Translations under genes and position numbers: made by a program
In this document: piece after piece, positions 37,306-51,116 of the stretch
Numbering within the stretch: the stretch's first letter is position 1
Layout of the letters: each line of letters starts with the position of its first letter
Assembly (NCBI GenBank): GCA_034666125.1
Contig: JAXDML010000010.1
Location: 150,037 to 214,036 of the forward strand
Source: Candidatus Parcubacteria bacterium
GTDB taxonomy: Bacteria > Patescibacteriota > Minisyncoccia > Phycocordibacterales > Phycocordibacteraceae
Direction: 5' to 3'
DNA: 64,000 bases
Notes under the pieces: model-generated
What the model was told of the DNA's origin: nothing
What the model saw: the letters and a program-made list of their open reading frames with translations, nothing else
The model's database searches: none

Positions 37306-37345
37306 TCCGAGAGCAGAGAAAGGGAAGAGGAGAAAGCAGGATAAC

Positions 37346-37372
37346 GCAAAAACGCCCCGAGGGGCGTTTTTG
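37346..37372 (+). terminator. Rho-independent terminator after the LOG gene
   Basis: AAAAACGCCCC-gag-GGGCGTTTTTGC. Confidence 0.7.
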
Positions 37373-37624
37373 CTGATAGCCGGTTGATGTCTCATCCCGA
37401 TCGCGCCGGAGAGGGTTTACCGCATCTCTCCCGAAGGTTCGATGCAGGACCGGACTCCAACACTCGCTTACAAGACCCGGTTCTCAATCGATAGGCTGCT
37501 TTTGGCCGAAGCCTCGAACAGTTATCTACCGACCCTGCCCGAGGCCGAAGCCAAGGGCTAAGTTCGAGTATCGCGCCTGCCGCAAAACCCGGCAACTGTG
37601 GATACTGTTTATAAGGTGGGGACA

Positions 37625-37690
37625 AAAAATATAATAGGGAAAAGCCGTTTCTTCAACGCGGCTTGATATCCCAGGTTTGAAGAAGCGGCT
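37625..37690 (-). terminator. Long hairpin terminator downstream of the minus-strand gene 37692..37922
   Basis: AGCCGTTTCTTCAA...TTGAAGAAGCGGCT: a 13-bp stem with one mismatch. On the minus strand it is followed by TTTTCCCTATTATATTTTTTG. Confidence 0.5.
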
Positions 37691-37691
37691 T

Positions 37692-37922
37692 TCAACTCAG
37701 CCCGGGGATGTGCAGGTCCCCCTCCACGAAGAGCCAGAAAATGAGCCCGGCGACGACGACGATCAGCGATGTCTCGGGCCATGGCAACCCTATCCAATGG
37801 CAGATCAGCGCGATGAGGGCCAGAAGGATTAGTCCCCAGATGGTCGGGCCTAGACTGTTACCCCTCAACATGATGATCAGCGTCCAGATTGCGCACAACG
37901 CAAAGGGCAGGTACTGGGTCAC
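37692..37922 (-). CDS. Small membrane protein (2 TM)
   Basis: 76 aa, hydrophobic. Confidence 0.35.
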   Translation of the reverse strand: MTQYLPFALCAIWTLIIMLRGNSLGPTIWGLILLALIALICHWIGLPWPETSLIVVVAGLIFWLFVEGDLHIPGLS

Positions 37923-38118
37923 GGTGACCTCCTTTCGTTTCAGTACCCTATGACTGTACGACTTACAAAGTAGAGAGTCAATAGAGAAGAGAATCGTATC
38001 AAAAGGAAAAAACTATCACATTCAACAGGGAGGCAAAGAAGACGGATGGCCGTTTTCCTTACAATGGCGACACGTGACCATAGGCATGTCGAGTGGCGGG
38101 GAAAGGCCCGAACCGTAT

Positions 38119-38292
38119 TTATATCTGAGGCGGAGTCTTCTTCTTGCTCTTCACTACGCTGACGATGCCGATAATTACCACTACGAGTCCGAGCAACTGC
38201 GCTCCGGGACTATCATCGATTCCGCCGTATACGAACATGAATGCTCCGAAAGCTATCGCGAGAATGGAACATAGCAACCTTCCTTTATTCAT
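38119..38292 (-). CDS. Small membrane protein (57 aa, 2 TM), not in the supplied ORF track
   Basis: Manual translation: MNKGRLLCSILAIAFGAFMFVYGGIDDSPGAQLLGLVVVIIGIVSVVKSKKKTPPQI. Confidence 0.3.
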   Translation of the reverse strand: MNKGRLLCSILAIAFGAFMFVYGGIDDSPGAQLLGLVVVIIGIVSVVKSKKKTPPQI

Positions 38293-38433
38293 ATAAAGAT
38301 CCTACCAAATGGGGAAATAAAAGAAAAAGGGCCCGGTATTTACTCCGGGACAGGGAAGTATACAAAAGGAAAAGGCCATCTGGGGGGAGACGACCGATTC
38401 CTTTGGTCCTCTCCCGGCTGATGGCCTTGGGCG

Positions 38434-38676
38434 TCAGTCCTCCTTGGTCGACGCCGCCGCTTCGAGCCGCTGCGCCACGTGCTCGATGTAGAGCAGGATG
38501 GCGCAGAGCATGAAGCCCAGTGTGATGACGACGAGCACCGCACCCCCGCCGATCTTGATGAAGCTCTGGTTCGGCGACGCCAGGACGATGGTGGCGAAGA
38601 AGGCGAAGATCAGCGCCATGACGACGTAGGTCGCGCTATCTTTGGCACCCCTGGCAATTCTTTCCGACTTGGACAT
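38434..38676 (-). CDS. Small membrane protein (2 TM)
   Basis: 80 aa, with an N-terminal charged segment then two TM helices. Confidence 0.4.
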   Translation of the reverse strand: MSKSERIARGAKDSATYVVMALIFAFFATIVLASPNQSFIKIGGGAVLVVITLGFMLCAILLYIEHVAQRLEAAASTKED

Positions 38677-38773
38677 CTTTCTCTCCTTGAAACATCAGTG
38701 GATTCATAGGCAGATTGGCACATATAGCCTACTTTTGTCAATCCAGCAGGGAAGTCAGATCTATACTGGAGGG

Positions 38774-38947
38774 ATGGAGAGAAAATGCGATGGGTGCGGA
38801 AATGAGATGCGTAGGATCGGTTCTTTTGCTCGAACAAAACGAGAAGGAGAGCGCTCATTCAAGAGCGACGGCTCGGTGCAATACCAGTGTATCAACGAAG
38901 TTTGCTCTGAGTACGAGAAAGTAGTGACGATTCAGCCGGGGGAGTAA
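38774..38947 (+). CDS. Small zinc-ribbon protein
   Basis: MERKCDGCGNEM...CINEVCSEYEK: two CxxC pairs. It sits at the beginning of the low-GC island. Confidence 0.35.
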   Translation: MERKCDGCGNEMRRIGSFARTKREGERSFKSDGSVQYQCINEVCSEYEKVVTIQPGE

Positions 38948-39517
38948 CCGGGTTGCGCGAAGTGGGGTTAATTCTTTGTTTCTAGAAGAGGGCATAGACT
39001 TGGACGACTCAAAGAAGTCTTGAGGAAAACTTGAGAACCTCTTCTGTAGGGTAGGGGAGTCCCCGGCACTTAGATCGGGGACGTGAGTAACTGCAGATTA
39101 CCGCTATGACGAAGGTAAAAGCGTGGCATTCGGCCAGGGAGACTGACCGTCAGGTATACCACGACAACGATGCGTGCACAGAAGGGAACAACATTGAAGA
39201 GAAGTACCGCCGGGAAGGTACTGACAATCGTCCTCAATGTGACCACTGTAGACGCCTCAGTTAAGGGTTTGTAGCGGAGTCTGCCCGGACGTAGCATCCC
39301 TGATACTTCTTCGGGAGGTCTGGGTGATCGCTCCTCTGGCACTCCCCGTGCAACCAGAACCATCGTCCCGTCTTGTCTTCGTCGGCAGCCGGGACGATGG
39401 TCTTTTGTATTACTGAGAGCTCGTAGTGAAGTCCGTCGTGTATGTAGGTGTCATCCTCTTCGGCCTCCGTCTTAGCCGCGCAGTAGATTTGACCGTTTTT
39501 TCGTATCCGTAGAGCCA

Positions 39518-39541
39518 TAGGGTAGGGAAGTCAGGTATAAT
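39518..39541 (+). promoter_or_regulatory. Island promoter motif copy 1: TAGGGTAGGGAAG-N5-TATAAT, followed by an ORF-free structured region
   Basis: Direct read. Nothing codes for >1 kb downstream. Confidence 0.45.
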
Positions 39542-39762
39542 GGGGGTGTAAGGTCAAGTCGAGCAAAGTTTAGTAAAGTCGAGTTAAGCAGATGAACTAT
39601 GGGCCTCGTGCCCTGCCCTCGCTTGCGAGGAAAAAGAGACCTTAGACCTGGGAACCTAGATCAGTAACATGGCTCCGCGCTCCAAAAGTCCACGCGCGTG
39701 GCAGGGAAGAGTTCGTTTGTCGTTACTGACCTAATCACTCCCAGGTCTAAACTCTATTTAAG

Positions 39763-39844
39763 TACAACGCACAATATCTGGATCAAATATTTCTGTCTTT
39801 TGTCAAGGCTTTGGGGCTCATTATTGAAAAGTGGGGAGACCCTT
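39763..39844 (+). repeat. 82-bp direct repeat, copy A (partner at 42953..43035)
   Basis: ACAACGCACAATATCTGGATCAAATATTTCTGTCTTTTGTCAAGGCTTTGGGGCTCATTATTGAAAAGTGGGGAGACCCTTA. Differs from copy B by 1 substitution and 1 indel. Confidence 0.9.
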
Positions 39845-40109
39845 AGAACGATCTAGGGGAGGCTCGGCAAGAAGAGAAATATGTTGTAGTTTGGACGCGA
39901 AAATCGTCCACAAGTTGTCCACTTAGGGTCGCGCTTGCGTCAAAATAGCCTCGGGTTAGGATACTTGGAGGAGAGTGGTTACCTTCCTTTTCCACTCCTC
40001 TGAAACGGTCAGTCCGGCCTTTTTATCAGACAACTACTAGCTCGCGGGCTCTAAATCCCAGAAAGGGGTTATTTTTCGTCCTTGTGCGTTCAGAACTTTG
40101 AAAACTTGA

Positions 40110-40214
40110 GTATTGAAGTGTGCCCCGACCGGGAATCGAACCCGGATCATTTCCTGAGAGAGGGAACGCCCTTTCGGGTGGAGTTTTCTAGACTCTTGCT
40201 CTATCCATTGAGCT
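40110..40214 (-). tRNA. tRNA-like gene with a ~34-nt insertion between anticodon stem and T-arm (apparent anticodon AGA); possible intron-containing or degenerate tRNA
   Basis: On the minus strand: perfect 7-bp acceptor (GCCCCGA/TCGGGGC), canonical D-arm (GCTC-AATGGATA-GAGC), anticodon stem-loop AGAGT-CTAGAAA-ACTCC, and a perfect T-arm (CCGGG-TTCGATT-CCCGG). A 34-nt segment with two hairpins (CCC-GAAA-GGG and TTCC...GGAA) sits where the 4-5 nt variable loop should be. Confidence 0.45.
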
Positions 40215-40909
40215 ATCGGGGCACGCTTCAGTACTCAAGATGCTTATGAGATGGGCAGTAGGTCGAAACCTTTTCGGCACACTGCCCAGCCCGTAAGGAC
40301 TGGGTAAATCTCTGGCGAGATTTAGGAAAGGGATCGGGTATTACCTGGTCCTTTTTCCGTTATCATTTCGCTCGCGGATGGTAGTGTCGGGGAACTTGTC
40401 GTTCACCCATTCACGGACATACCTTCCGGTCTTGGCGCTGCGATAAGAGTAGGGAATAAGCCTAGTCGTTAGTCGCGTCTAAACACCCGCATTGTCACTG
40501 CGGGGCCACTTTTCTCGGGAGACCGACCTCCGTCGCCTGCCGCTACGTATCGGCGGGGTATAGTGAGAAACGACACTTGTATCCGATACAAATAGAACCC
40601 ATCCCGACATCTGGCGTAGGCGCTCTCCCTTTCGGGTATCACGCCATACTGGCGAGTGGTCTCTTGAAACCTACGCCAGATGTCGAAACAGGTTCTCTGT
40701 TTCGGGAGAGCATATGAGGGGGACCAACCCCTGTTTATGAAAGTACCGCCCAGCGATTGAGCGTAGCTTTAGTATAACCGAACCGCGCCAAGCTCGTCTT
40801 GGGGATAGGGGTCGCTCCGAAACAGTCCGGCTATAAGGCAAGGGCAAATTGAGCGCTCCTTCTTGGTCCAGGTATTGTGCGATACAGCGATATAAACCGA
40901 GAAGGGAAG

Positions 40910-41125
40910 TTAACCTTTCAGTTTCTTCAGAGCGGCCTTCATGATTTTCTTACGTCCTTCACTCGGGCTGATCTCACGTGCCGCTTCGAAAAGGGCTTCT
41001 TTAGAGGCTTTCTTGGTCGCTTCCGCGAGCTTCGCCAGTTGCTTCACCGCGAAGTCAACCTCCCACTTCTGCTTAAAGGCTATAAGGTTGCGGTCTTCTT
41101 TCACTTTCTTTGGGTCGTCGGCCAT
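40910..41125 (-). CDS. Small basic lysine-rich protein (module 1)
   Basis: 71 aa, MADDPKKVKEDRNLIAFKQKW.. Preceded on its strand by the conserved CAGAGTCCGTATTTGGC motif and TATACT immediately before the ATG. Confidence 0.4.
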   Translation of the reverse strand: MADDPKKVKEDRNLIAFKQKWEVDFAVKQLAKLAEATKKASKEALFEAAREISPSEGRKKIMKAALKKLKG

Positions 41126-41142
41126 AAGTATAGAGTTACTAA

Positions 41143-41177
41143 TACCCCTTAACCCTATCAGAGTCCGTATTTGGCGG
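41143..41177. repeat. Island repeat family 2, copy 1 (CTAYCAGAGTCCGTATTTGGC-GGGGAGGG)
   Basis: Direct read. Partner at 44046..44080. Confidence 0.8.
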
Positions 41178-41189
41178 GGGAGGGTAGTC

Positions 41190-41567
41190 CTACTTTCCCT
41201 GAAGCTTCTTGAGCTCTTTAGTGAGCTTTTCTATCTGTTTCAGGAGCTCGTCGATTCGCTTCTGGTTCTTAGAGACGGCGGGACCGTTCGCCTTACACTC
41301 GCCCCCTTTGGTTAGGTAGTAGCCTGCGTTGCAACTGAACTTACAAGTGCTTTTGGCGGTTATGAGAACGGTCGCGTTCTTGGGAGCACTCTTCGTACAG
41401 GCTTTGAGGGCCTTGTTCTCGCAAGATCTGAGCTCGATCTTCTGACTCGCGGTCGGATTCGGTCCGAACGAAGTACGCATCGATGCGCAGCTGGAAGTGT
41501 TAAATGCCGCGTGTGCAGGCACCGACAAAAGAAATACAGCAATTAGCCCTATAAGGGTCTTTTTCAT
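41190..41567 (-). CDS. Secreted Cys-rich protein with C-terminal coiled-coil (paralog of 44659..45027)
   Basis: Signal peptide MKKTLIGLIAVFLLSVPAHAA, 10 Cys, and a C-terminal KRIDELLKQIEKLTKELKKLQGK. Confidence 0.5.
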   Translation of the reverse strand: MKKTLIGLIAVFLLSVPAHAAFNTSSCASMRTSFGPNPTASQKIELRSCENKALKACTKSAPKNATVLITAKSTCKFSCNAGYYLTKGGECKANGPAVSKNQKRIDELLKQIEKLTKELKKLQGK

Positions 41568-41736
41568 AGTGGAAGGTTTAAGTGTCTAAACGGTGCACCG
41601 CCCGAGGGTATCCCGGAAACCTTCCACGGAAACCGGGACCTGAACTCAGCCGGTGCATTGGTGGAAGGTTATATGTGGCCCTCTAGGGTACTGAACCTCA
41701 GTATACAACGGCTCCTTTTGAGGAAACAACGGGTCG

Positions 41737-41760
41737 TGGGGTAGGGGAGGCCTTATACTT
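41737..41760 (+). promoter_or_regulatory. Island promoter motif copy 2: TGGGGTAGGGGAG-N5-TATACT, 5 nt before the ATG at 41766
   Basis: Direct read. Confidence 0.45.
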
Positions 41761-41765
41761 TGGGG

Positions 41766-42614
41766 ATGGTCGATTTCCTATATAACTGGCAGACCCTGCT
41801 GGGCTCTTTGCTGGGAGCAGGCGTCCCATTGTCTTTACTGCTCGTCGGTAGGTTTTATTTTCAGAGACGGGATCACTTACGATCTCTGCATAAATTTGTG
41901 CTCCTTGCGAGCAATAACCTGATTGAGATAGATAGAACCGTTAGGGAGTTCAGGGACATTCGTATCGAGAAGCTCCTCTCAGACCTGGCGCGGGACCTGG
42001 AGGCGAACGAACCAAAATTCGTGGTGCCAATGGCGTATTTTCCACTTCAATCAGTCTTACGTTTACCAGACGACCTAATTAATCAGTCCACTGAAAGTGG
42101 GTATGTTGACACATGGGGACTCGAAGTTCTCTCGAAGTCCCGCGATCTTGAGAAGATAATGGACGACCTCCAGAGACAGTTCGAAGCGACTCTGGCTATG
42201 AATAAGGAATTAACTTTCTTGCTGTCGAATAAAATTGACGAAAAGGATAGAGAAGCCGCCCTAAGGCATTCGAGAGGCCTTATTTCCAGTCTGCGCCAAC
42301 AAATTACAGATTACGCAATCGTTCTCGAAAGAGACTTCTTTGGAAAGAACGTGCCTATCTATCTAAAGAGTCTCGCCACAACGTTGGCGGTCATAGATGA
42401 ATACAACCGAATTGGTTATATGTCTTGGAAATGGAAGTTCCGGATAGGCTTTAAGTGCTACAGAAATAAGGAATCGTATTTGCATGCAAAGGCCAACATC
42501 ATGAAAAAGATCGATCTTTACCTAAAAGAGAAAGTAGACGCAAAAATTGCCAGTACATTAGAACTGCTTACGCAGAGTCAATCGACATCTGTAGTGGTCC
42601 GTCAGGAGAGCTGA
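41766..42614 (+). CDS. Hypothetical protein with N-terminal TM helix
   Basis: The ORF as called starts at TTG 41760; first ATG at 41766 (MVDFLYNWQTLLGSLLGAGVPLSLLLVG..). Helical, with no family recognised. Confidence 0.5.
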   Translation: MVDFLYNWQTLLGSLLGAGVPLSLLLVGRFYFQRRDHLRSLHKFVLLASNNLIEIDRTVREFRDIRIEKLLSDLARDLEANEPKFVVPMAYFPLQSVLRLPDDLINQSTESGYVDTWGLEVLSKSRDLEKIMDDLQRQFEATLAMNKELTFLLSNKIDEKDREAALRHSRGLISSLRQQITDYAIVLERDFFGKNVPIYLKSLATTLAVIDEYNRIGYMSWKWKFRIGFKCYRNKESYLHAKANIMKKIDLYLKEKVDAKIASTLELLTQSQSTSVVVRQES

Positions 42615-42952
42615 TAGTCCAAATAGTGCTCGGGTAATGTCTGACCAAAAGGGCAGGGGAGTCAGCCTTAGACACCCCTAAAGGCTGATCTTCTTCTTTT
42701 TTGTTCATAGGGTAGGGAAGTCAGGGTGTGAGCCCTGAAAAGCCAGCCTGATTTTGCTACTATTCTCGTGGGGTAGGGAGACAAGTCCCTACCCCAGTCA
42801 GTTACGGCCATAGAGGGGACCCAGATTCATGGACATCCTCGAACTGATCCTTATCTACCTGATTCTTAAAAAGATCCTGTAGAGAAGGGAGTACGGACCG
42901 CGTTACAAGCGCGGTTTCTGCTTTCGGGCTGGCTTTTGAAGGTTCAAATCAA

Positions 42953-43035
42953 ACAACGCACAATATCTGGAACAAATATTTCTGTCTTTTGTCAAGGCTT
43001 TGGGGCTCATTATTGAAAAGTGGGGAAGACCCTTA
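42953..43035 (+). repeat. 83-bp direct repeat, copy B; overlaps the 5' end of ORF 43000..43530
   Basis: Near-identical to 39763..39844. Confidence 0.9.
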
Positions 43036-43530
43036 AAGCAATTCGAAGCAGCCTCGCCGAAAACAGAAGTGTGTTCTAGTTTGACGCATCTTCAGCGAAG
43101 ATTTAGGCTTAATGTTACAAACTTGAAGAACACCAAGAAAAAGAAGGTCCGGACAAGACCACATACCCGTACTGATGTGATTTCAGACACGGAAAGGCTG
43201 GAGATCCACTACTGGACCTTAGGAAGTAGGGTGACTAGATTTGCTGTTTGCTACTGCTGCGAGATCGACGGGGAATGGGTGAGTATCACTTGGTGTGATG
43301 ACGCGCATCTCGAAAAAGGAAGGTATGTCGGCAAAGGCCGAAAAGGGCATTGCCACAGTTTCTCGGCCCAGGGTGGCAAACTTGTAGAAAACGAGTATCT
43401 TTTAGGTCTGGGGACTCCGGCTGAGCATCTGACTGAGGTTCTGAATAATTTCAAGAAGAATCACGAGCAAATACGGGCTCAGTATATGAAGGCTGTGGAG
43501 AAAGCCGCTAGACAGGCAAAGAATAGGTAA
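43000..43530 (+). CDS. Hypothetical Cys/His-rich protein (start uncertain; ORF as called begins at TTG inside the repeat)
   Basis: VCYCCEIDGEWVSITWCDDAHLEKGRYVGKGRKGHCHSF suggests metal binding. The lysine-rich N-terminus may not be translated. Confidence 0.4.
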   Translation: MGLIIEKWGRPLKQFEAASPKTEVCSSLTHLQRRFRLNVTNLKNTKKKKVRTRPHTRTDVISDTERLEIHYWTLGSRVTRFAVCYCCEIDGEWVSITWCDDAHLEKGRYVGKGRKGHCHSFSAQGGKLVENEYLLGLGTPAEHLTEVLNNFKKNHEQIRAQYMKAVEKAARQAKNR

Positions 43531-43540
43531 GAATATAGAT

Positions 43541-43801
43541 ATGGCTGCTACTAACAAAAGGATCGTAAGAAAGAATCTGACCTGCTCAGTGGCTTTTAAC
43601 GAATACTTAATCAAGAACTCTGGTAAGAGAATCCTGCCTAATGGAGCAACCGTAGTTTTTAGTGATACGAGAGACGCCGCCTTTTCGGCTGCGAATAGAT
43701 TACTTTGTAATAGCATAGTCAGAAGTGGGGAAAGTTGCTACATAGCAGAAAAAAGCGGCAGGTCTTGGAATGTAGATAGAATATCTCCGGTCAGCAGATA
43801 G
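43541..43801 (+). CDS. Hypothetical protein
   Basis: 86 aa with no motifs. Confidence 0.3.
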   Translation: MAATNKRIVRKNLTCSVAFNEYLIKNSGKRILPNGATVVFSDTRDAAFSAANRLLCNSIVRSGESCYIAEKSGRSWNVDRISPVSR

Positions 43802-43860
43802 AGGTAGTTGTCTAAACAGAAAAGCCGCCCTACGGCGGTTCTTTTCTTGGAGGAGGGGAG

Positions 43861-44013
43861 TTACTTCTTCCCGCGAGGCTTGTTGGCTGCGTTATCAAGA
43901 GCAACTGCCGCTAACGTCTTCACTTGGGCACTTGTTGGCTTGATCGCACCACTGAGAACCTTCGAAGCCAGGGTCGCATTCTTCGAGGAGGTCACGTCAT
44001 CTTTCTTTGCCAT
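43861..44013 (-). CDS. Small basic lysine-rich protein (module 2; 50 aa, not in ORF track)
   Basis: Manual translation MAKKDDVTSSKNATLASKVLSGAIKPTSAQVKTLAAVALDNAANKPRGKK. Preceded by repeat family 2, copy 2. Confidence 0.3.
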   Translation of the reverse strand: MAKKDDVTSSKNATLASKVLSGAIKPTSAQVKTLAAVALDNAANKPRGKK

Positions 44014-44045
44014 AACTGTAGTGGTTAACTAATAATCTCCTATAA

Positions 44046-44080
44046 CTCTACCAGAGTCCGTATTTGGCCAGGGGAGGGGA
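44046..44080. repeat. Island repeat family 2, copy 2
   Basis: CTACCAGAGTCCGTATTTGGCCAGGGGAGGGG. Confidence 0.8.
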
Positions 44081-44089
44081 TAACGGGAG

Positions 44090-44674
44090 TTAGTCGTCTC
44101 CAATCCTCCCGGCAGTTAATCTGCTTAACTCTGCCTTCCATTTCGCCCGGGCAGCTGCATTGGCTGATACTGTGACCGATATATCGCTTGGTATCGGGTC
44201 GGCATCCATCTTCTGTATTTCGGGGTTCGAGATCCTCTCGCTAAGAGGCGAGTAACTGCTCAGTAACTCGTTTGTGCCGAGGTTCTGTATGAAGTAACTT
44301 GTCTCAGTAATCCAACTGCGCTCCCCAGTACTCATCACTTGGAACGAGTCTTCTGTAGTGCTGTATCCGCCCACACACTCTTTGAGTTCAGGACTGAACC
44401 CGACAAGGAAACTACTCATGTCCATACGAACGACCATTCTCTCTGGGTACCCGTTTGTTATGGCTTTCTGGCTATAGAAGTCCTGGATCCCAGCCGTACG
44501 CTCACGGAATGCGTCTAGTTTCTGAGAACAGTCTTTCGAGTCGGCACTGCCTAACGTCTTTGGAGTCGAACTGCCAATGGCGTAAACCGTAATTGCAAAA
44601 ATCAAGAGGACGACACACGCGCCCAGGGCGAATCCCTCAAAGGAGATTTTCCTCATAGCTAGAAGGAGCCACAA
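44090..44674 (-). CDS. Membrane-anchored/secreted hypothetical protein
   Basis: Probable start at MRKISFEGFALGACVVLLIFAITVYA (signal anchor). No family. Confidence 0.45.
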   Translation of the reverse strand: MWLLLAMRKISFEGFALGACVVLLIFAITVYAIGSSTPKTLGSADSKDCSQKLDAFRERTAGIQDFYSQKAITNGYPERMVVRMDMSSFLVGFSPELKECVGGYSTTEDSFQVMSTGERSWITETSYFIQNLGTNELLSSYSPLSERISNPEIQKMDADPIPSDISVTVSANAAARAKWKAELSRLTAGRIGDD

Positions 44675-45027
44675 GCCTGTACCATACCGTTAGATAGGTA
44701 GCTGCATACGGACGTCTGGGTCCCCAATTGCTTGTCGATCTCCTGTATCTCTTTCGCCGCAGCGTTCCTCTGCTGTGCGGTTACCTTCATATTCCGGTTC
44801 AGTTTGACGAGCTCCGCTTTGCGCCGCTCAAGCTTCTCAGTCTTAGCCGAGGTCTTAACTGGGGTCTTTTTGTCGATCTGAACGACCGACCTTCCTTCAA
44901 GAGCAGAGACACGTTTCTCAAGGGCCAGGAGCCTTGAAGCGAGAGAACCGATAGAGTCAGGGGCTGCGTACGTGAAGGCGGGCACGATCAGGACGCCCAG
45001 AACGAAGCCCGCAAGGGTCTTTTTCAT
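44659..45027 (-). CDS. Secreted coiled-coil protein with C-terminal Cys pair (paralog of 41190..41567, domains in the opposite order)
   Basis: Start at MKKTLAGFVLGVLIVPAFTYA (signal peptide), coiled-coil LASRLLALEKRVSALEGR.., and C-terminal ..VCSYLSNGMVQACGSF. The upstream extension of the ORF as called is rejected. Confidence 0.45.
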   Translation of the reverse strand: MKKTLAGFVLGVLIVPAFTYAAPDSIGSLASRLLALEKRVSALEGRSVVQIDKKTPVKTSAKTEKLERRKAELVKLNRNMKVTAQQRNAAAKEIQEIDKQLGTQTSVCSYLSNGMVQACGSF

Positions 45028-45260
45028 AGGGAAGTTTGCGTGAGGTTTCGTGGAATAAACGCACCGCCCAAGGATGGAATCTCCGAGCAAACTTCCCAGA
45101 AAGCCGGAGACCCCAAGGAACTTGGGCGGTGCGGTCGGGAAGTTTGCTGCTATGGGTGGTGTCACTACCACGATACAACAGGGCAGACCCCTTGTAAATA
45201 CTAGCCTGGGGACACATTTCACGTCCCTAAAGTTTTTCTAAAGGCGTTATCAACTGGAAA

Positions 45261-45284
45261 TAGGGCAGGGAAGTGTGGTATAAT
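45261..45284 (+). promoter_or_regulatory. Island promoter motif copy 3: TAGGGCAGGGAAG-N5-TATAAT, 8 nt before the ATG at 45293
   Basis: Direct read. Confidence 0.45.
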
Positions 45285-45292
45285 GCAGAAGC

Positions 45293-45538
45293 ATGGACTT
45301 GAATAAACAAGAGAAAACCATGGCTGACGTGATACTCGTGTCCTACAATCCAGCGTTTTTCATGCTTGGAATGCAGCACGGGGAATCAGTCTCGGTGTAC
45401 ACCACTACCCCAGAAGGGGCTAAGGCGTTCGCCGAGAACCTTACGAAGCGTGTGGCTGAGTACGAATCCACGATACGTAAGATTGATTCCTCGGGTCTAC
45501 AGTTAGGGACCGTGTCACCGATCCAGCCTCGCAAATAA
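45293..45538 (+). CDS. Hypothetical protein
   Basis: 81 aa with no motifs. Confidence 0.35.
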   Translation: MDLNKQEKTMADVILVSYNPAFFMLGMQHGESVSVYTTTPEGAKAFAENLTKRVAEYESTIRKIDSSGLQLGTVSPIQPRK

Positions 45539-45640
45539 AGCTTTTTGTTCCTGTTACTTTAGAGAGTCCTTCTTTCATATTTCTACATCGCACAATATCT
45601 GTTTTGCGTAATACAAATACGTAAAGCACGCAAAGGCAGA

Positions 45641-45826
45641 TTAGGACTTTGCCCTTGGAGAGAGACTCTCAAGTAGTTTAGTGACTTGACTTACCATCTG
45701 TTCAACGACTGAACGCTTCATATGGAAGCTTGTAACGCGTCCTTGTTTGTTATGAAGATGAAGAAGTATCTCATCTTCAGCCTCCCTAACGTCCATTTTG
45801 ATATCTATGATAGGCAAGTTTTCCAT
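45641..45826 (-). CDS. Hypothetical small protein
   Basis: 61 aa. Confidence 0.25.
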   Translation of the reverse strand: MENLPIIDIKMDVREAEDEILLHLHNKQGRVTSFHMKRSVVEQMVSQVTKLLESLSPRAKS

Positions 45827-45995
45827 AGATCCATTATACTCGTTTATCCGAGATATGGCTCACTTATTGGTTTCTTTAGTACCAAGACCTACTCAACTTA
45901 TATGAAGAGCTGTGCGGGTCTTGAAGACTGCCAATAGGTGTTGGACTTCCGGTGAAGAATGAGACTAGTTTCTGAAGATTCCAAGGCTCCAGCTA

Positions 45996-46607
45996 TCAAG
46001 TAAGGGGTTGCGACTCCCCTACCTTCAAATTTGGAAGGAATGTGTTGAAAATAGAAAGCCTAAAACTATCTGAGAAATGCTTCCATTCTTCCATTAAGGA
46101 TCGGAGAGTCTCGAAGCCCGCTTTTATAAGAAGCTGGTCTCTCTCGTCGTCAGGATTCTTGCCACCGTGAAAGAGGTTATTTCGTATTGAATGCCAGAAC
46201 TCAATCATATTTCTCCAGTCTTCCAGATTACGAATCCTTCCCTGTTGGTCACAAAAATGACTTTCCTGGTCCTGTACGTTCTGACAGTCACAATCCCAGT
46301 ACCAGATCGCATGAACATCGTCCGTATTTTTGTCGAGCTCGCCCAAGGGACGTTCATCCAGCTCATTTTTAATAGACTGCCAAGACTGCTGAAGATGGTT
46401 ATCCCTAGCAACTAAGTCAAGGTACATATTTCGCACCTCTGCATCGTATTTAAGAGCTCGAATTGCGCTTGAGTCTGTCACTCTGTTTGTAAACTTAATT
46501 CGCTTCAAATATGCAATAAATGCCAGGTACTCGAAAACATACTTTGAAAAGTAGTCCTCACTACCGGCCTGGGCGTGCCAACTTCTTATTAATTGTTCGA
46601 AGTCCAT
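45996..46607 (-). CDS. Hypothetical protein with HEPN-type Rx4H motif (candidate RNase), third gene of a compact 3-gene operon
   Basis: WHSIRNNLFHGGK contains R-N-x3-H, as in HEPN catalytic motifs. 203 aa, helical. Starts 9 nt after the stop of the 4-TM gene. Confidence 0.45.
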   Translation of the reverse strand: MDFEQLIRSWHAQAGSEDYFSKYVFEYLAFIAYLKRIKFTNRVTDSSAIRALKYDAEVRNMYLDLVARDNHLQQSWQSIKNELDERPLGELDKNTDDVHAIWYWDCDCQNVQDQESHFCDQQGRIRNLEDWRNMIEFWHSIRNNLFHGGKNPDDERDQLLIKAGFETLRSLMEEWKHFSDSFRLSIFNTFLPNLKVGESQPLT

Positions 46608-46616
46608 TAGCAGTCT

Positions 46617-47066
46617 CTACTTAATTGATAGGTTAAAGATTCTCCTTGTAATCCAAATACAGCGTCCAGTTTTTATAATAACTAAAAAAACAATGGCCAA
46701 GAACATGAACATTTCTACCTTCGGAGATGCGTCTATGTTTAGTACCTCTCTTAGGATCAGAATAATAACTCCAAAGGATATCCAAAAAAGTGCGTTTACA
46801 ATTATATCCATTACAGTTCGAAACGACTTTGTCTTTTTGAAATAAACTAATTTTTCACTGTCGTTAAAAGAGAAAATTATAGCCATGAAAGCCATAACAA
46901 ACCCCAAGAGTCCAATCAGTGACTCAGTCATATTAAGTAAAAACTCGTTGCTTAACGAGGAAGACAAATTGAAACGGAATAAGAAATACGTTATTCCACC
47001 CGCGCATAGAAAAGTGAGTAAGGTATCTATAGGCTGAAAGAATTTTTGATACCAATTCTTTAACAT
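46617..47066 (-). CDS. Small 4-TM membrane protein (middle gene of the 3-gene operon)
   Basis: 149 aa with four hydrophobic helices. ~33% GC. Starts 3 nt after the stop of the upstream 306-aa gene. Confidence 0.55.
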   Translation of the reverse strand: MLKNWYQKFFQPIDTLLTFLCAGGITYFLFRFNLSSSLSNEFLLNMTESLIGLLGFVMAFMAIIFSFNDSEKLVYFKKTKSFRTVMDIIVNALFWISFGVIILILREVLNIDASPKVEMFMFLAIVFLVIIKTGRCIWITRRIFNLSIK

Positions 47067-47069
47067 ATT

Positions 47070-47990
47070 TTATTCACCTATAATACTTAGAAGATCGCCC
47101 CGCTTCTTTTTGTAGGCAGCGCAGATATTTTCGAACATATCTTTCGGGTCAACTTCTCGAGCGTTGTTTAATTTAGTAGTTCTAACTTCGTACACCATTT
47201 TGTCTTTGAGGAGGTCAAAGTCTTGAATTTTTTGTGTCTGAGAGTCCCAGGCTTTGATATTAAAACGATCAAATTGCTCACCGGGGTAGAAACGTCCCAC
47301 ATACCCCTTTAAGTTTTTAAGGAATGTCTTTCGTTCAGTGCCCTTAAGAATCGGCTTCCTGCCGTTCTTTTTTGGTCTTAGTACTAGTTCGATTTCTTCC
47401 AAATCTCCAAAGGAAGACGCAGTCCTGAGGGATGAATAAAGATTCGAGTCCAGATTTTTTATACTGTCGACGTGATTCTTATGTACCATTAGGGAGATTG
47501 ATGTAATATCTCCCATTCTACTAATTTGTCGGAGCGCGTCCTTATTAAATAGAATATTAAAGTATAAGAAAAGTGGATTCTTTACTCCAATATTTACGTT
47601 CTCCATCTTTTCGTTCAGATACTTAGCAAGTGTGCCAATGCGCGGTCCATAAAAGTTATATTCCATAGCTACGATGCCCTTCTCAGGGAAATACACAAAG
47701 TGTGTAGGTATGACCAGACCCTCGCTATCTTTAAGTTTTAGGGGATGAACTTTTGTGTCGTCAACCGACGCGACAGAAGGAAAGTCACTACCTCTCCATT
47801 CGTATAAACTTCCGTAAATTACCCCCTTGCCCGTGTCTTTTACGGTGCAGAATATCTTTCTGTCCCTCTCTCTTTCCCAGAAGATATCTTTTTGATCCAG
47901 TGAACTTAATTCTTTAACAACGTCAACAAAAGTGCCGTTCATAACAGCCGATCGGTAGAAGTAGACCTGTCGCACAACAGTTTCCTTCAT
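47070..47990 (-). CDS. Hypothetical 306-aa cytoplasmic protein (first gene of the 3-gene operon), unknown function
   Basis: No TM and no confidently recognisable catalytic motif. A weak GS..DD nucleotidyltransferase-like pattern (YGSLYEWRGSDFPSVASVDD) does not fit the canonical spacing. Lowest GC in the window. Confidence 0.5.
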   Translation of the reverse strand: MKETVVRQVYFYRSAVMNGTFVDVVKELSSLDQKDIFWERERDRKIFCTVKDTGKGVIYGSLYEWRGSDFPSVASVDDTKVHPLKLKDSEGLVIPTHFVYFPEKGIVAMEYNFYGPRIGTLAKYLNEKMENVNIGVKNPLFLYFNILFNKDALRQISRMGDITSISLMVHKNHVDSIKNLDSNLYSSLRTASSFGDLEEIELVLRPKKNGRKPILKGTERKTFLKNLKGYVGRFYPGEQFDRFNIKAWDSQTQKIQDFDLLKDKMVYEVRTTKLNNAREVDPKDMFENICAAYKKKRGDLLSIIGE

Positions 47991-48315
47991 GAGGCCTTCA
48001 TTTTACCACCAGGGTGAATCTTGTACAGACGGACCCAATGTCAAGCCTTTAAAAGGCTTGTGAGCTCCTTTCGCTTTGATAGAAACTTTGCTTCTATATT
48101 TCCGTGACTGATTTCAAAACACGTTAGGATCTACTTGACCTAAACTAGGCTGTTTGGCCTGGCGTGGTCTAAAAACGCGACAAACATAGAAAACCCGTCA
48201 TCAGGGCGTTTGTCGCGTTATAGGGGTAAACTCCTATAGGGGCTTCGGCCCTACTGGTGGCGGGTTTTGTGTTTGCCCACCTCCCCGCCCCGTCTTACTT
48301 CCCTAGTAAACGAAC

Positions 48316-48798
48316 ATGGCACAAGAAACTACTGTTACTGAAGACACTAAGGTCTGTCCGAAATGTGCGACAAATATCCCCAAGCAAGCAATACGCTGCC
48401 CTAACTGTAGGAGCAAGATAGGAACCTCGAGACTTGGAAAGCTTCTTGCGATCTTCTTCGGGCTCTTCATTGTCATGATGGTCATCTCAGTTCAAAGTGC
48501 CACCCCTACCCCACGAGTCCCTGGACCTGAGACGGAACCGGGCTGGGCTGACTCTGCCGCAGGAAAACTTTGTTCCAAGCACCCTGACTGGCAACCGGAA
48601 GAATGCGTTAAGGTTGCTGGAAAGAAGATCTGGATCGGTATGGACTACGATATGCTCGTATATCAATACGGAAAGCCAGATTCTATAAACCCTTCTAACT
48701 ATGGAGGCGGAACAAGATACCAATACTGTTGGCATGATTACTCCCCTTCTTGCTTTTATGACGAGAATGGGGATAACAAGATAGACGCTTATAACTAA
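48316..48798 (+). CDS. Zinc-ribbon / TM / extracytoplasmic domain protein
   Basis: CPKC...CPNC zinc ribbon, one TM (LLAIFFGLFIVMMVISV), and a C-terminal Cys-containing domain. Confidence 0.5.
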   Translation: MAQETTVTEDTKVCPKCATNIPKQAIRCPNCRSKIGTSRLGKLLAIFFGLFIVMMVISVQSATPTPRVPGPETEPGWADSAAGKLCSKHPDWQPEECVKVAGKKIWIGMDYDMLVYQYGKPDSINPSNYGGGTRYQYCWHDYSPSCFYDENGDNKIDAYN

Positions 48799-49368: not shown

Positions 49369-50004
49369 TCACTTGTTTATCTCAAGGAAGATTGTCGCAA
49401 GCAAGTCCATCATGGTGGCAGCCGTAGGTTTAGACTCGGGAGTTTCGGATGCACACGCATTATCTGCCCACAGTCCCTCCTTATTCACTCGTGCTGTTGT
49501 CTCTGCCTCTTTAAACTGAGCCTGGTATTTGTACGGTAAGTTGTATGTATATTCCTGGGCAAACCCTTCCTGGATCATCTTTAAATTAAGGTTAGATCCG
49601 TTTTCAAGAAAAATATATCCAAGTCTCCTATTGTATTTGTCGTAGGTACCCTGGGATGGGTCTGTCTCGACATACACTTTTGCGTCAGTAAGGAGCGCCT
49701 TGGCTCGATTAGAGGCCTCGCGACCAAAACACTCGACCGCTTGAGTTGGATGAACTGTTTCAGGAGTATCTATACCAATGAGTCGGAATGTCTGAACTTC
49801 GTTATCTATGCGAATTTTTACCGTATCTCCATCTACGACGTCAACAACAGAGTAGAGACTGCTAGGTGCTTGGAAGCCTTCCTCAACAGATTGAGTTTGT
49901 TTCGCTACTTCCCCTCCCGATCTATCTGTAAGAAATAGTAAGCCCCCACCAACAAAAAGGATGCCAATGCAACATGCTGTTAATTTTTTGAGAGCCGCAC
50001 TCAT
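49369..50004 (-). CDS. Secreted thermonuclease (staphylococcal nuclease/SNase family)
   Basis: Signal anchor; SNase motifs VVDGDTVKI, FRLIGIDTPE, RRLGYIF, GLW. Confidence 0.75.
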   Translation of the reverse strand: MSAALKKLTACCIGILFVGGGLLFLTDRSGGEVAKQTQSVEEGFQAPSSLYSVVDVVDGDTVKIRIDNEVQTFRLIGIDTPETVHPTQAVECFGREASNRAKALLTDAKVYVETDPSQGTYDKYNRRLGYIFLENGSNLNLKMIQEGFAQEYTYNLPYKYQAQFKEAETTARVNKEGLWADNACASETPESKPTAATMMDLLATIFLEINK

Positions 50005-50019
50005 TCCTAGAGTATATCT

Positions 50020-51015
50020 CTAGGGCGTGTGATTCATGGGTAACCGAAATTCACCCATATCCTCCCCTATCTGATACTGAGTGGCAGAAATAACCTTTAA
50101 GTCCCCCAAATCGAGCATTTTGTGATGGTTAGGACATAGCACGAGCATATTTGATGGGAGGTCTGCACCAGGAAGTCGTTTGGCAATTGGCACAATGTGG
50201 GCTACTTCAGAATAAAGGTTTCCGCTTCTCTGTCTGAAGGTAAATCCACAAATTTGGCATTCGTTTTTATACTTCTCCTTCATCCGACGAACGAGAGATA
50301 CGTTGCGCTTAATAACGGTCACCTTCCTGGCTACAGATTCAGGCACGTCATCCGCATGACGTTGCTGCCATTCGAGTAGCAGTGAATCCTCTTCCTTATC
50401 TCGTGTAAGCGCGTCGACCTCCGCGAGTTCACTTGCAGTGAGGTCTTCCTTCCCACTAATACTATCGAGCAAAGCCACGTCTTTTGCCTTAAGTCCAGGA
50501 GAGTATGCGTCGAAGAATGAATCTAGACTTCCGTAAGTTGCATAGATCCTGTCCAAAGCACCTTCACGTAGACTTACGAAACCCTGAACAACCATCTTGT
50601 CGTCATAGGCTCCTAATTCGCGGATAATCTCAAGAGGAAGCTGAATTGGCCGAAGTTCGTCGAGAAAGAATAGGTATTCCCAGGTTTCTTCTTTTTGCGG
50701 GATATTGCCCCACAGAGCTCTCGCGATCTCGGCGCTCTGCTTTTTCAATATACATTTACCCGTATACACAAAAACTCCTTTTGCGTAAAAAAGAACACTG
50801 TCACCCGGTTGCATTTGATCCCAATAGAAGCGCCTCCCTTCTCCACTTCCCCATATATAAAGCTGGTCTTGTACACCCAGAGCCTGCTCTTCCTCGGTCG
50901 AGAGATATTGATGTATATGGTCACGTGGGTAACCGCTGGCAAGCGTTGCAATAAAGTTTGCCTGCGATGTTTCGTTGCTCCGAGGAGCCAGGTATATCTT
51001 TGGACGTTCAGCCAT
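50020..51015 (-). CDS. HNH endonuclease with N-terminal PUA-like (EVE/ASCH-type) domain, candidate modification-dependent nuclease
   Basis: Start at MAERPKIY. HNH: CQICGFTF..SEVAHIVPIA..N.LVLCPNHHKMLD. N-terminal GDSVLFYAKGVFVYTGK-type PUA-like pattern (fold assignment is inference). Confidence 0.65.
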   Translation of the reverse strand: MAERPKIYLAPRSNETSQANFIATLASGYPRDHIHQYLSTEEEQALGVQDQLYIWGSGEGRRFYWDQMQPGDSVLFYAKGVFVYTGKCILKKQSAEIARALWGNIPQKEETWEYLFFLDELRPIQLPLEIIRELGAYDDKMVVQGFVSLREGALDRIYATYGSLDSFFDAYSPGLKAKDVALLDSISGKEDLTASELAEVDALTRDKEEDSLLLEWQQRHADDVPESVARKVTVIKRNVSLVRRMKEKYKNECQICGFTFRQRSGNLYSEVAHIVPIAKRLPGADLPSNMLVLCPNHHKMLDLGDLKVISATQYQIGEDMGEFRLPMNHTP

Positions 51016-51116
51016 ATTTCCTTGCACAAAGGCTACGCCTGAACCGTAGTATGTCAATCGCCGCTGATTTGAGACAATCTTAAAAACAAAAAGATCACAT
51101 AGCGCGGACACCAACT

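Follow-up and report, generated by a model that had tools for sequence, protein, structure and literature searches.

Lambdoid and other mosaic phages and islands carry repeated promoter or boundary sequences, known as 'linkers', between their modules. We compared with such systems a direct repeat, here called R, in a 64,000-nt stretch of contig JAXDML010000010.1 of a Candidatus Parcubacteria bacterium (positions 150,037 to 214,036 of the contig; referred to below as the window, by whose numbering all coordinates are given). The 'stoperators' and start-associated sequences of mycobacteriophages provide a second point of comparison, as an analogy for the 13-15-nt 5' box of R only. R lies in an island of low guanine-cytosine (GC) content, and in our assessment there is an even chance that it is a regulatory (promoter/leader) block common to tandem paralogous units of this foreign island.

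The repeat R and the blocks around it

R is present as two near-identical cores in direct orientation on the plus strand, copy A at 39764..39845 (82 nt) and copy B at 42953..43035 (83 nt), with a start-to-start spacing of 3189 nt. The cores agree in 81 of 83 columns and differ by one substitution (T at 39777, A at 42966) and by a 1-nt indel in an A run (GGGGAGA versus GGGGAAGA). A preliminary description of this DNA, made from the sequence alone, was therefore right about the nature of the repeats and the position of copy B, and was off by one base for copy A. Sensitive BLAST extended the homology to 135 nt in total at approximately 86% identity, ending at 39898 and 43087. The last 53 nt, which make up diverged 3' extensions at 39846..39898 and 43036..43087 (both on the plus strand), are approximately 68% identical. 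The left boundary of R is abrupt and the right one gradual; the extension of copy A forms the 3' arm of a predicted long hairpin. Self-BLAST of the window returned R (E 8e-35) and a second element, R2, as the sole repeats, and the similarity between the R copies is far beyond chance. The population carrying the locus was present in three datasets only, Joint Genome Institute (JGI) 3300044738, JGI 3300044739 and Logan SRR24887408. Searches with a 34-mer, a 28-mer and a 21-mer of R gave no matches in viral, metagenome and genome contig collections, and the 3.6-kb region matched nothing among phage and plasmid records. With two full copies only in 64 kb and none in other collections, R does not look like a generic dispersed repeat, a possibility that the preliminary description had raised.

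The 5' box of R, A[TA]CGCACAATAYCTG, occurs in four copies, each 25-50 nt past the end of the preceding unit and co-oriented with that unit. Apart from the two full copies of R, it is found in a partial R at 45584..45601 on the plus strand (TACATCGCACAATATCTG), 46 nt past the stop of gene 45293-45538, and in an inverted partial R at 40863..40896 on the minus strand (TCGCACAATACCTGGACCAA, with upstream similarity to the copy at 45574-45601), just past the stop of the minus-strand gene 40910-41125. The recurrence of a 13-mer, CGCACAATATCTG, at 45589-45601 had been noticed before and holds, with 17 of 18 bases agreeing over 45584-45601. This placement fits a putative oriented protein-binding or boundary site.

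R is non-coding, because protein homologues align only downstream of it and no open reading frame (ORF) is common to both copies. Copy B had been thought to overlap the start of ORF 43000-43530, which opens with TTG and encodes 176 aa; this ORF is simply the longest that can be called mechanically, and its start is also the one in the JGI annotation. The Pfam match to DUF7718 covers residues 58-166. An exhaustive HMMER search produced eight homologues of 110-127 aa whose alignments start at query residues 43-61, and in a multiple alignment they begin opposite residues ~39-59, with none of the eight covering residues 1-38; the closest, at 56% identity, begins opposite residue 58-59. The residues that R would contribute at the N terminus are thus not shared by the family, and a start at 43000 is unsupported. 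The true start of DUF7718 likely lies at or after 43123, at least 36 nt beyond the end of R, and Pfam and the homologue alignments favour TTG 43123 (alternatively GTG 43177), giving a gene at 43123..43530 on the plus strand and probably a 5' untranslated region at 43000-43122. The gene model, here and in the JGI annotation, is consequently over-extended by at least 41 codons. In copy A, a TTG at 39811 does open a frame reading MGLIIEKWGDP before a stop, as had been reported; the argument that this represents the same gene start followed by a stop falls because R is upstream of the true DUF7718 start, and the reading is a mere copy of non-coding sequence. A small conserved peptide within R was also rejected, since the copies lack any ORF shared in the same frame.

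R is accompanied by other blocks, which recur in the same order in two adjacent units: P-box, R, tail, R2 and a signal-peptide start. P-box A (39516..39541, plus strand; CATAGGGTAGGGAAGTCAGG followed by TATAAT) lies 227 nt upstream of copy A, and P-box B (42706..42731, plus strand), with an identical 20-mer and a degenerate -10 element (GTGTGA), lies 227 nt upstream of copy B. The tail, a 26-nt block, is found at 39964..39988 (CTTGGAGGAGAGTGGTTACCTTCC) and, directly after the DUF5647 terminator, at 43846..43871, both on the plus strand. R2 occupies 41121..41184 and, at 81% identity, 44009..44078, in each case on the minus strand and comprising the upstream region and start of a small minus-strand gene; the two genes (71 aa and 50 aa) are unrelated, and the R2 positions in the colinear series are 41159 and 44052. 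Finally, identical 17-nt blocks at 41553..41569 and 45013..45029, again on the minus strand, form the starts (MKKTL) of secreted proteins of 125 aa and 122 aa. Exact colinear matches of at least 13 nt thus amount to 20, 19+54, 17 and 17 nt, where approximately 0.1 would be expected by chance, and the tail adds a fifth block. Between the blocks no residual similarity was detected and the intervening sequences are unrelated. Even the stretch from P-box to R is unrelated in sequence (28% ungapped identity versus a null of approximately 25%); its length, however, is 227 nt in both units, which suggests a possible phasing or length constraint.

Such a pattern speaks for a pair of paralogous units in tandem (39516-42705 and 42706-45259) whose cargo has been exchanged, and against a 3.1-kb insertion. 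A third unit would begin at 45260, where a third P-box (45260-45285) is followed by the partial R at 45584-45601. The proteins of the two units have no detectable homology, those adjacent to R2 are unrelated, and the two secreted proteins are alike in their starts only. Unit 2 has in addition the DUF7718-DUF5647 genes between R and tail and a 188-aa gene after R2; unit 1 has, between its tail and small gene, a tRNA-like gene and a structured region of 660 nt, and ends in a 282-aa gene that is absent from unit 2. Tandem duplication with ordinary coding divergence was rejected on the lack of detectable protein homology, and a pseudogene remnant downstream of copy A was likewise rejected, as tblastx and local alignments detected nothing there beyond the 26-nt tail block. 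Since the proteins are not homologous, the duplication would be old and the cargo replaced. We infer a history in which an ancestral unit was tandem-duplicated long ago, after which the cargo turned over and the non-coding blocks were kept; modular reassembly around the blocks would be an equivalent description.

R as a candidate promoter and leader

R most likely serves as the promoter/operator and leader of the DUF7718-DUF5647 operon, because it occupies the interval from a terminator-like hairpin to these two genes. We infer this function from position. The hairpin, GC-rich with a T-rich tail (42895..42917, plus strand), was read from the sequence and its fold and was not listed by the terminator scan; it closes a very stable fold that occupies 42735-42945, upstream of copy B (z -7.5). 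In unit 2, R would supply the promoter, TTGTCA-N16-TATTGA, which lies within copy B and is the sole candidate in R with proper spacing, together with the first part of the leader. The AT-rich upstream half of R carries the recurrent box CGCACAATAYCTG, a possible operator. R2 is likewise placed directly upstream of two unrelated genes. At copy A, approximately 250 nt past the repeat are free of ORFs, and a terminator-like site (40054..40078, plus strand; from the scan) follows about 180 nt downstream; the orphan copy would drive a non-coding RNA of approximately 250 nt ending there. If copy A is not a relic, it would be an orphan promoter that makes a short non-coding RNA.

The two genes that R precedes were found as a conserved, tightly coupled module in unrelated metagenomes (loci L088-L092), where DUF5647 (here 43541..43801, plus strand) is the conserved partner of DUF7718, and their layout resembles that of toxin-antitoxin pairs. 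DUF7718 has invariant D..H and H.H residues (D100, H103, H117 and H119 of the 176-aa ORF), which suggest a metal-dependent enzyme. A search for close homologues of the DUF7718 ORF gave no match but the ORF itself, and a literature search on the names DUF7718 and DUF5647 found nothing.

Several observations weigh against a promoter/leader function. The candidate hexamers match the sigma-70 consensus at 8 of 12 positions, without the T at position 6 of the -10 element, and were not listed by the consensus scan; the -10 candidate itself, TATTGA, is weak (3/6). A profile of the P-box built from five sites (nhmmer --max, E<=100) did not have R or R2 among its matches, and membership of R in the P-box promoter family (GGGTAGGGRAG-N4-6-TATAAT) was rejected on this basis. 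Copy A has no gene downstream. DUF7718-DUF5647 homologues elsewhere lack R and have unrelated upstream regions, although a locus carried by one population in three datasets limits judgement of conservation across lineages. Moreover, near-perfect identity over 82 nt exceeds the usual constraint on a promoter. The core, at approximately 98% identity, stands beside a 68% flank, a two-age pattern that is incompatible with uniform neutral decay and calls for either strong constraint or a recent short conversion tract. The collections searched yielded no diverged relative of the island.

The second of these options leads to the reading of R as a neutral relic, in which a recent patch of about 82 nt, made by gene conversion or template switching, was copied between old, decayed paralogous intergenic regions and has no function of its own. 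The contrast between the core (~98%) and the adjoining 53 nt (~68%) is what such a patch would leave, and the weak promoter and RNA-structure signals and the missing gene after copy A agree with it. We nevertheless consider it unlikely. P-box, R2 and the 5' box stand at functionally sensible places, before starts and after gene ends, and the two additional occurrences of the 5' box of R both run in the direction of the transcription unit before them. In addition, genomes of the Candidate Phyla Radiation (CPR) are compact, and direct repeats of 82 nt lying 3 kb apart are deletion-prone.

Other readings and the surrounding island

The preliminary description had proposed that the intervening 3.1 kb entered a pre-existing promoter region and left scars resembling attL and attR. 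Its view of R as a genuine duplication of a non-coding 5', promoter-type region stands, but the insertion is not supported. Under this proposal, 3.19 kb arrived by site-specific or Campbell-type recombination and duplicated the core. In its favour, the left boundary is abrupt, the near-identical direct repeats enclose a segment containing non-coding RNAs and a tRNA-like gene, the island is foreign, low in GC and furnished with defence-type genes, and short-read assemblies break inside R. As in an att pair, a directly oriented core is shared by both ends (81/83); outside such a core the sequences should be unrelated, but here 68% identity persists for 53 nt past the right edge and four further colinear blocks occur both within the segment and in the sequence on its right side. 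Tandem paralogous units would leave such blocks; a single insertion would not. Pfam, PADLOC, NCBIfam and PHROGs identified no integrase, recombinase or transposase among the ORFs of the segment or the island, no target-site duplication accompanies either copy of R, and R does not overlap the tRNA-like gene. Contigs or genomes with a single repeat copy and the 3.1 kb absent, for which the preliminary description had called, were not found in the three datasets: no look-up returned an empty site or an alternative junction, and every contig with flanking or internal genes had the same arrangement. Nor did further copies turn up in collections of viral, metagenome, genome, phage or plasmid sequences. 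We therefore regard att-like scars as improbable. Miniature inverted-repeat transposable elements and repeats derived from insertion sequences are dispersed in many copies and have terminal inverted repeats flanked by a target-site duplication; R, with two full copies and no such duplication, does not fit this description. The R copies could themselves be used as recombination substrates: repeats of 82 nt are long enough for a RecA-dependent deletion of 3.19 kb, which makes the locus a likely point of strain-level structural variation.

R might instead have been kept as an RNA element, a long imperfect hairpin in the transcript acting as a leader, an RNase III-type processing site or an attenuator between units. 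All 135 nt of R fold into a single long hairpin that starts and stops where the homology does. In copy B the stem has 22 bp, and several A/G differences in the 3' arm, read from the sequences, preserve pairing as G-U. Against dinucleotide-preserving shuffles copy B reached z -2.6, but copy A (z -1.5) folds no better than shuffles, and plain shuffles of slightly longer stretches gave -1.8 and -0.8 for B and A, respectively. Furthermore, divergence of 30% affects the 3' arm but spares the 5' arm, a U-tract is lacking, and two sequences give no power to detect covariation. Rfam 15 covariance models run over 39000-46000 at E<=1 matched the tRNA-like gene only. A comparable leader is absent from homologous operons elsewhere, where no conserved leader structure was found upstream of DUF7718. 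On balance we give the RNA-element reading a low probability.

More speculatively, the non-coding blocks could form the scaffold of an undescribed CPR cassette-exchange array without a recognisable integrase, the 135-nt R hairpin and the 5' box being its recombination or boundary site. The swapped cargo would then be the DUF7718-DUF5647 pair with its toxin-antitoxin-like layout, the tRNA-like gene with the large structured RNA, and the secreted proteins, and the R site would be functionally analogous to integron attC or to phage module linkers. We consider this quite improbable. That the pair of R copies is an assembly duplication is almost certainly wrong: Logan contigs, assembled at k=31, do terminate inside copy B, but both copies lie on one 11,108-nt contig of JGI 3300044738 that equals window 37344-48451 at 100% identity, a second JGI sample (3300044739) has a 1,035-nt contig spanning copy A and both its flanks at 100% identity, and the copies are not identical and have different flanks. 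In the Logan contigs (SRR24887408) the B-specific variant is joined to each of the two flanks of copy B, and a break inside the repeat is expected at k=31, so that independent contigs support each junction and the artefact feared in the preliminary description is effectively refuted.

Returning to the promoter/leader reading, its setting is an island of approximately 37.4-51.1 kb whose GC content (40-52%) contrasts with that of the flanks (~60%). The flanks belong to Candidatus Paceibacterota (Patescibacteria/CPR): a synteny of S41 peptidase, L9, L27, exonuclease and LOG-family genes is kept in many metagenome-assembled genomes (MAGs), with protein identity of up to 85%. The island was probably acquired horizontally. 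R, R2 and the P-box were all absent from 80 related Paceibacterota loci, anchored on the LOG-family flank. Synteny did not fix the limits of the island, because each relative examined has different DNA downstream of LOG, and direct repeats of at least 10 nt were not detected at the island edges. The 11,108-nt JGI contig begins exactly at the left edge of the island, 37344, which hints at strain variability there. Homologues of the 81-aa island protein (45293-45538), at approximately 35% identity, lie a short way downstream of this LOG-family gene in three related Paceibacterota MAGs (L010 11492-11725, L011 14739-14972 and L012 4174-4407). The post-LOG locus may be a recurrent variable spot in this lineage. 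Should the promoter/leader reading be true, CPR accessory islands would consist of tandem paralogous units that keep a few regulatory blocks while their gene cargo turns over.

The right part of the island is defence-like. It encodes a RexA-like protein (47070-47990) with a membrane partner (46617-47066), a HEPN-like protein (45996-46607) whose RNxxxH motif was read from the translation and which had no family match, an SNase (49369-50004) and an HNH gene resembling type IV restriction (50020-51114). A G-rich motif, TAGGGTAGGGRAG, occurs eight times in the island and, outside it, has one match with two mismatches (36078), probably by chance. Sites of the form (T)AGGGYAGGGRAG are at 38745, 39047, 39518, 41737, 42649, 42708 and 45261 and, on the minus strand, at 46014 and 48501. 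Three copies are followed by TATAAT or TATACT and, 6-8 nt later, by an ATG (genes at ~38774, 41766 and 45293), which suggests a private promoter type giving leaderless mRNAs. The P-box and R2 motifs had no matches in the viral contig collection, and the two metagenome matches of the P-box 19-mer were both attributed to chance, with no other similarity.

Arguably, R itself is less unusual than the non-coding RNAs next to it. The tRNA-like gene (40105-40239, minus strand; core 40121-40222) scored 56.7 bits with the Rfam tRNA model and was detected by ARAGORN, as Ser(AGA), only when introns were allowed. An insertion of 23-31 nt comes after the anticodon arm, and the acceptor stem is extended by 16-17 bp of leader/trailer pairing, then a U-run; blastn found no match in phage and plasmid records. 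Beside it, an ORF-free stretch of approximately 660 nt (40240-40900) is far more stably folded than shuffled sequence on both strands (plus, z -7.5; minus, z -6.1); it did not match Rfam at E<=1 and may be a large uncharacterised structured RNA. The fold of approximately 210 nt at 42735-42945, between P-box B and copy B, is a closed multi-hairpin structure (z -7.5 for 42735-43090) containing a 17-codon hydrophobic mini-ORF, MDILELILIYLILKKIL, at 42830-42883; its counterpart at copy A is unrelated in sequence and not notably structured. The fold at copy B follows a strong terminator-like hairpin with a T run at 42662-42705, read from the sequence, in which the 282-aa gene ends. A LOOT RNA (RF03000) at 48137-48252 scored 70 bits, above the gathering score, and lies between the RexA-like gene and that of a zinc-ribbon membrane protein.

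Comparison with known systems

Set against described systems, R shares features with several. Like the autoregulated promoter/operator of a toxin-antitoxin system, it stands directly upstream of a tightly coupled two-gene module of matching size and layout; unlike such a promoter, it has no evident palindromic operator, and its second copy lacks such an operon. Integron attC sites likewise present an imperfect palindrome of about 130 nt between gene units, with a short box just after the preceding unit. Their RYYYAAC and GTTRRRY ends, however, are not present in both copies: GTACAAC...GTTGTAG of copy A complies in part, whereas AAACAAC...GTTCTAG of copy B does not. Moreover, neither integrase (intI) nor attI was found, and the genes lie on both strands. 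The attL and attR sites of integrated elements are also near-identical direct repeats around a few kb of accessory DNA, but here a recombinase is absent, the right edge is fuzzy, the homology is colinear with the right neighbour, and R reconstitutes neither a tRNA nor a gene end.

The 5' box resembles the stoperators in being an asymmetric 13-15-nt site in short intergenic gaps, oriented with transcription and near the end of the preceding unit; it differs in numbering four copies only, and as a binding site it is putative. With the module linkers of phages, R and its companions share the form of short conserved non-coding blocks at gene boundaries, beside unrelated genes and recurring within one foreign element, and the blocks would be plausible substrates for homologous exchange of cargo. 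The differences are that phage structural and replication genes are missing here, that R has two full copies only, and that module exchange is hypothetical here. R adds one more example to a kind of feature already known; the duplication of a promoter/leader region is in itself ordinary.

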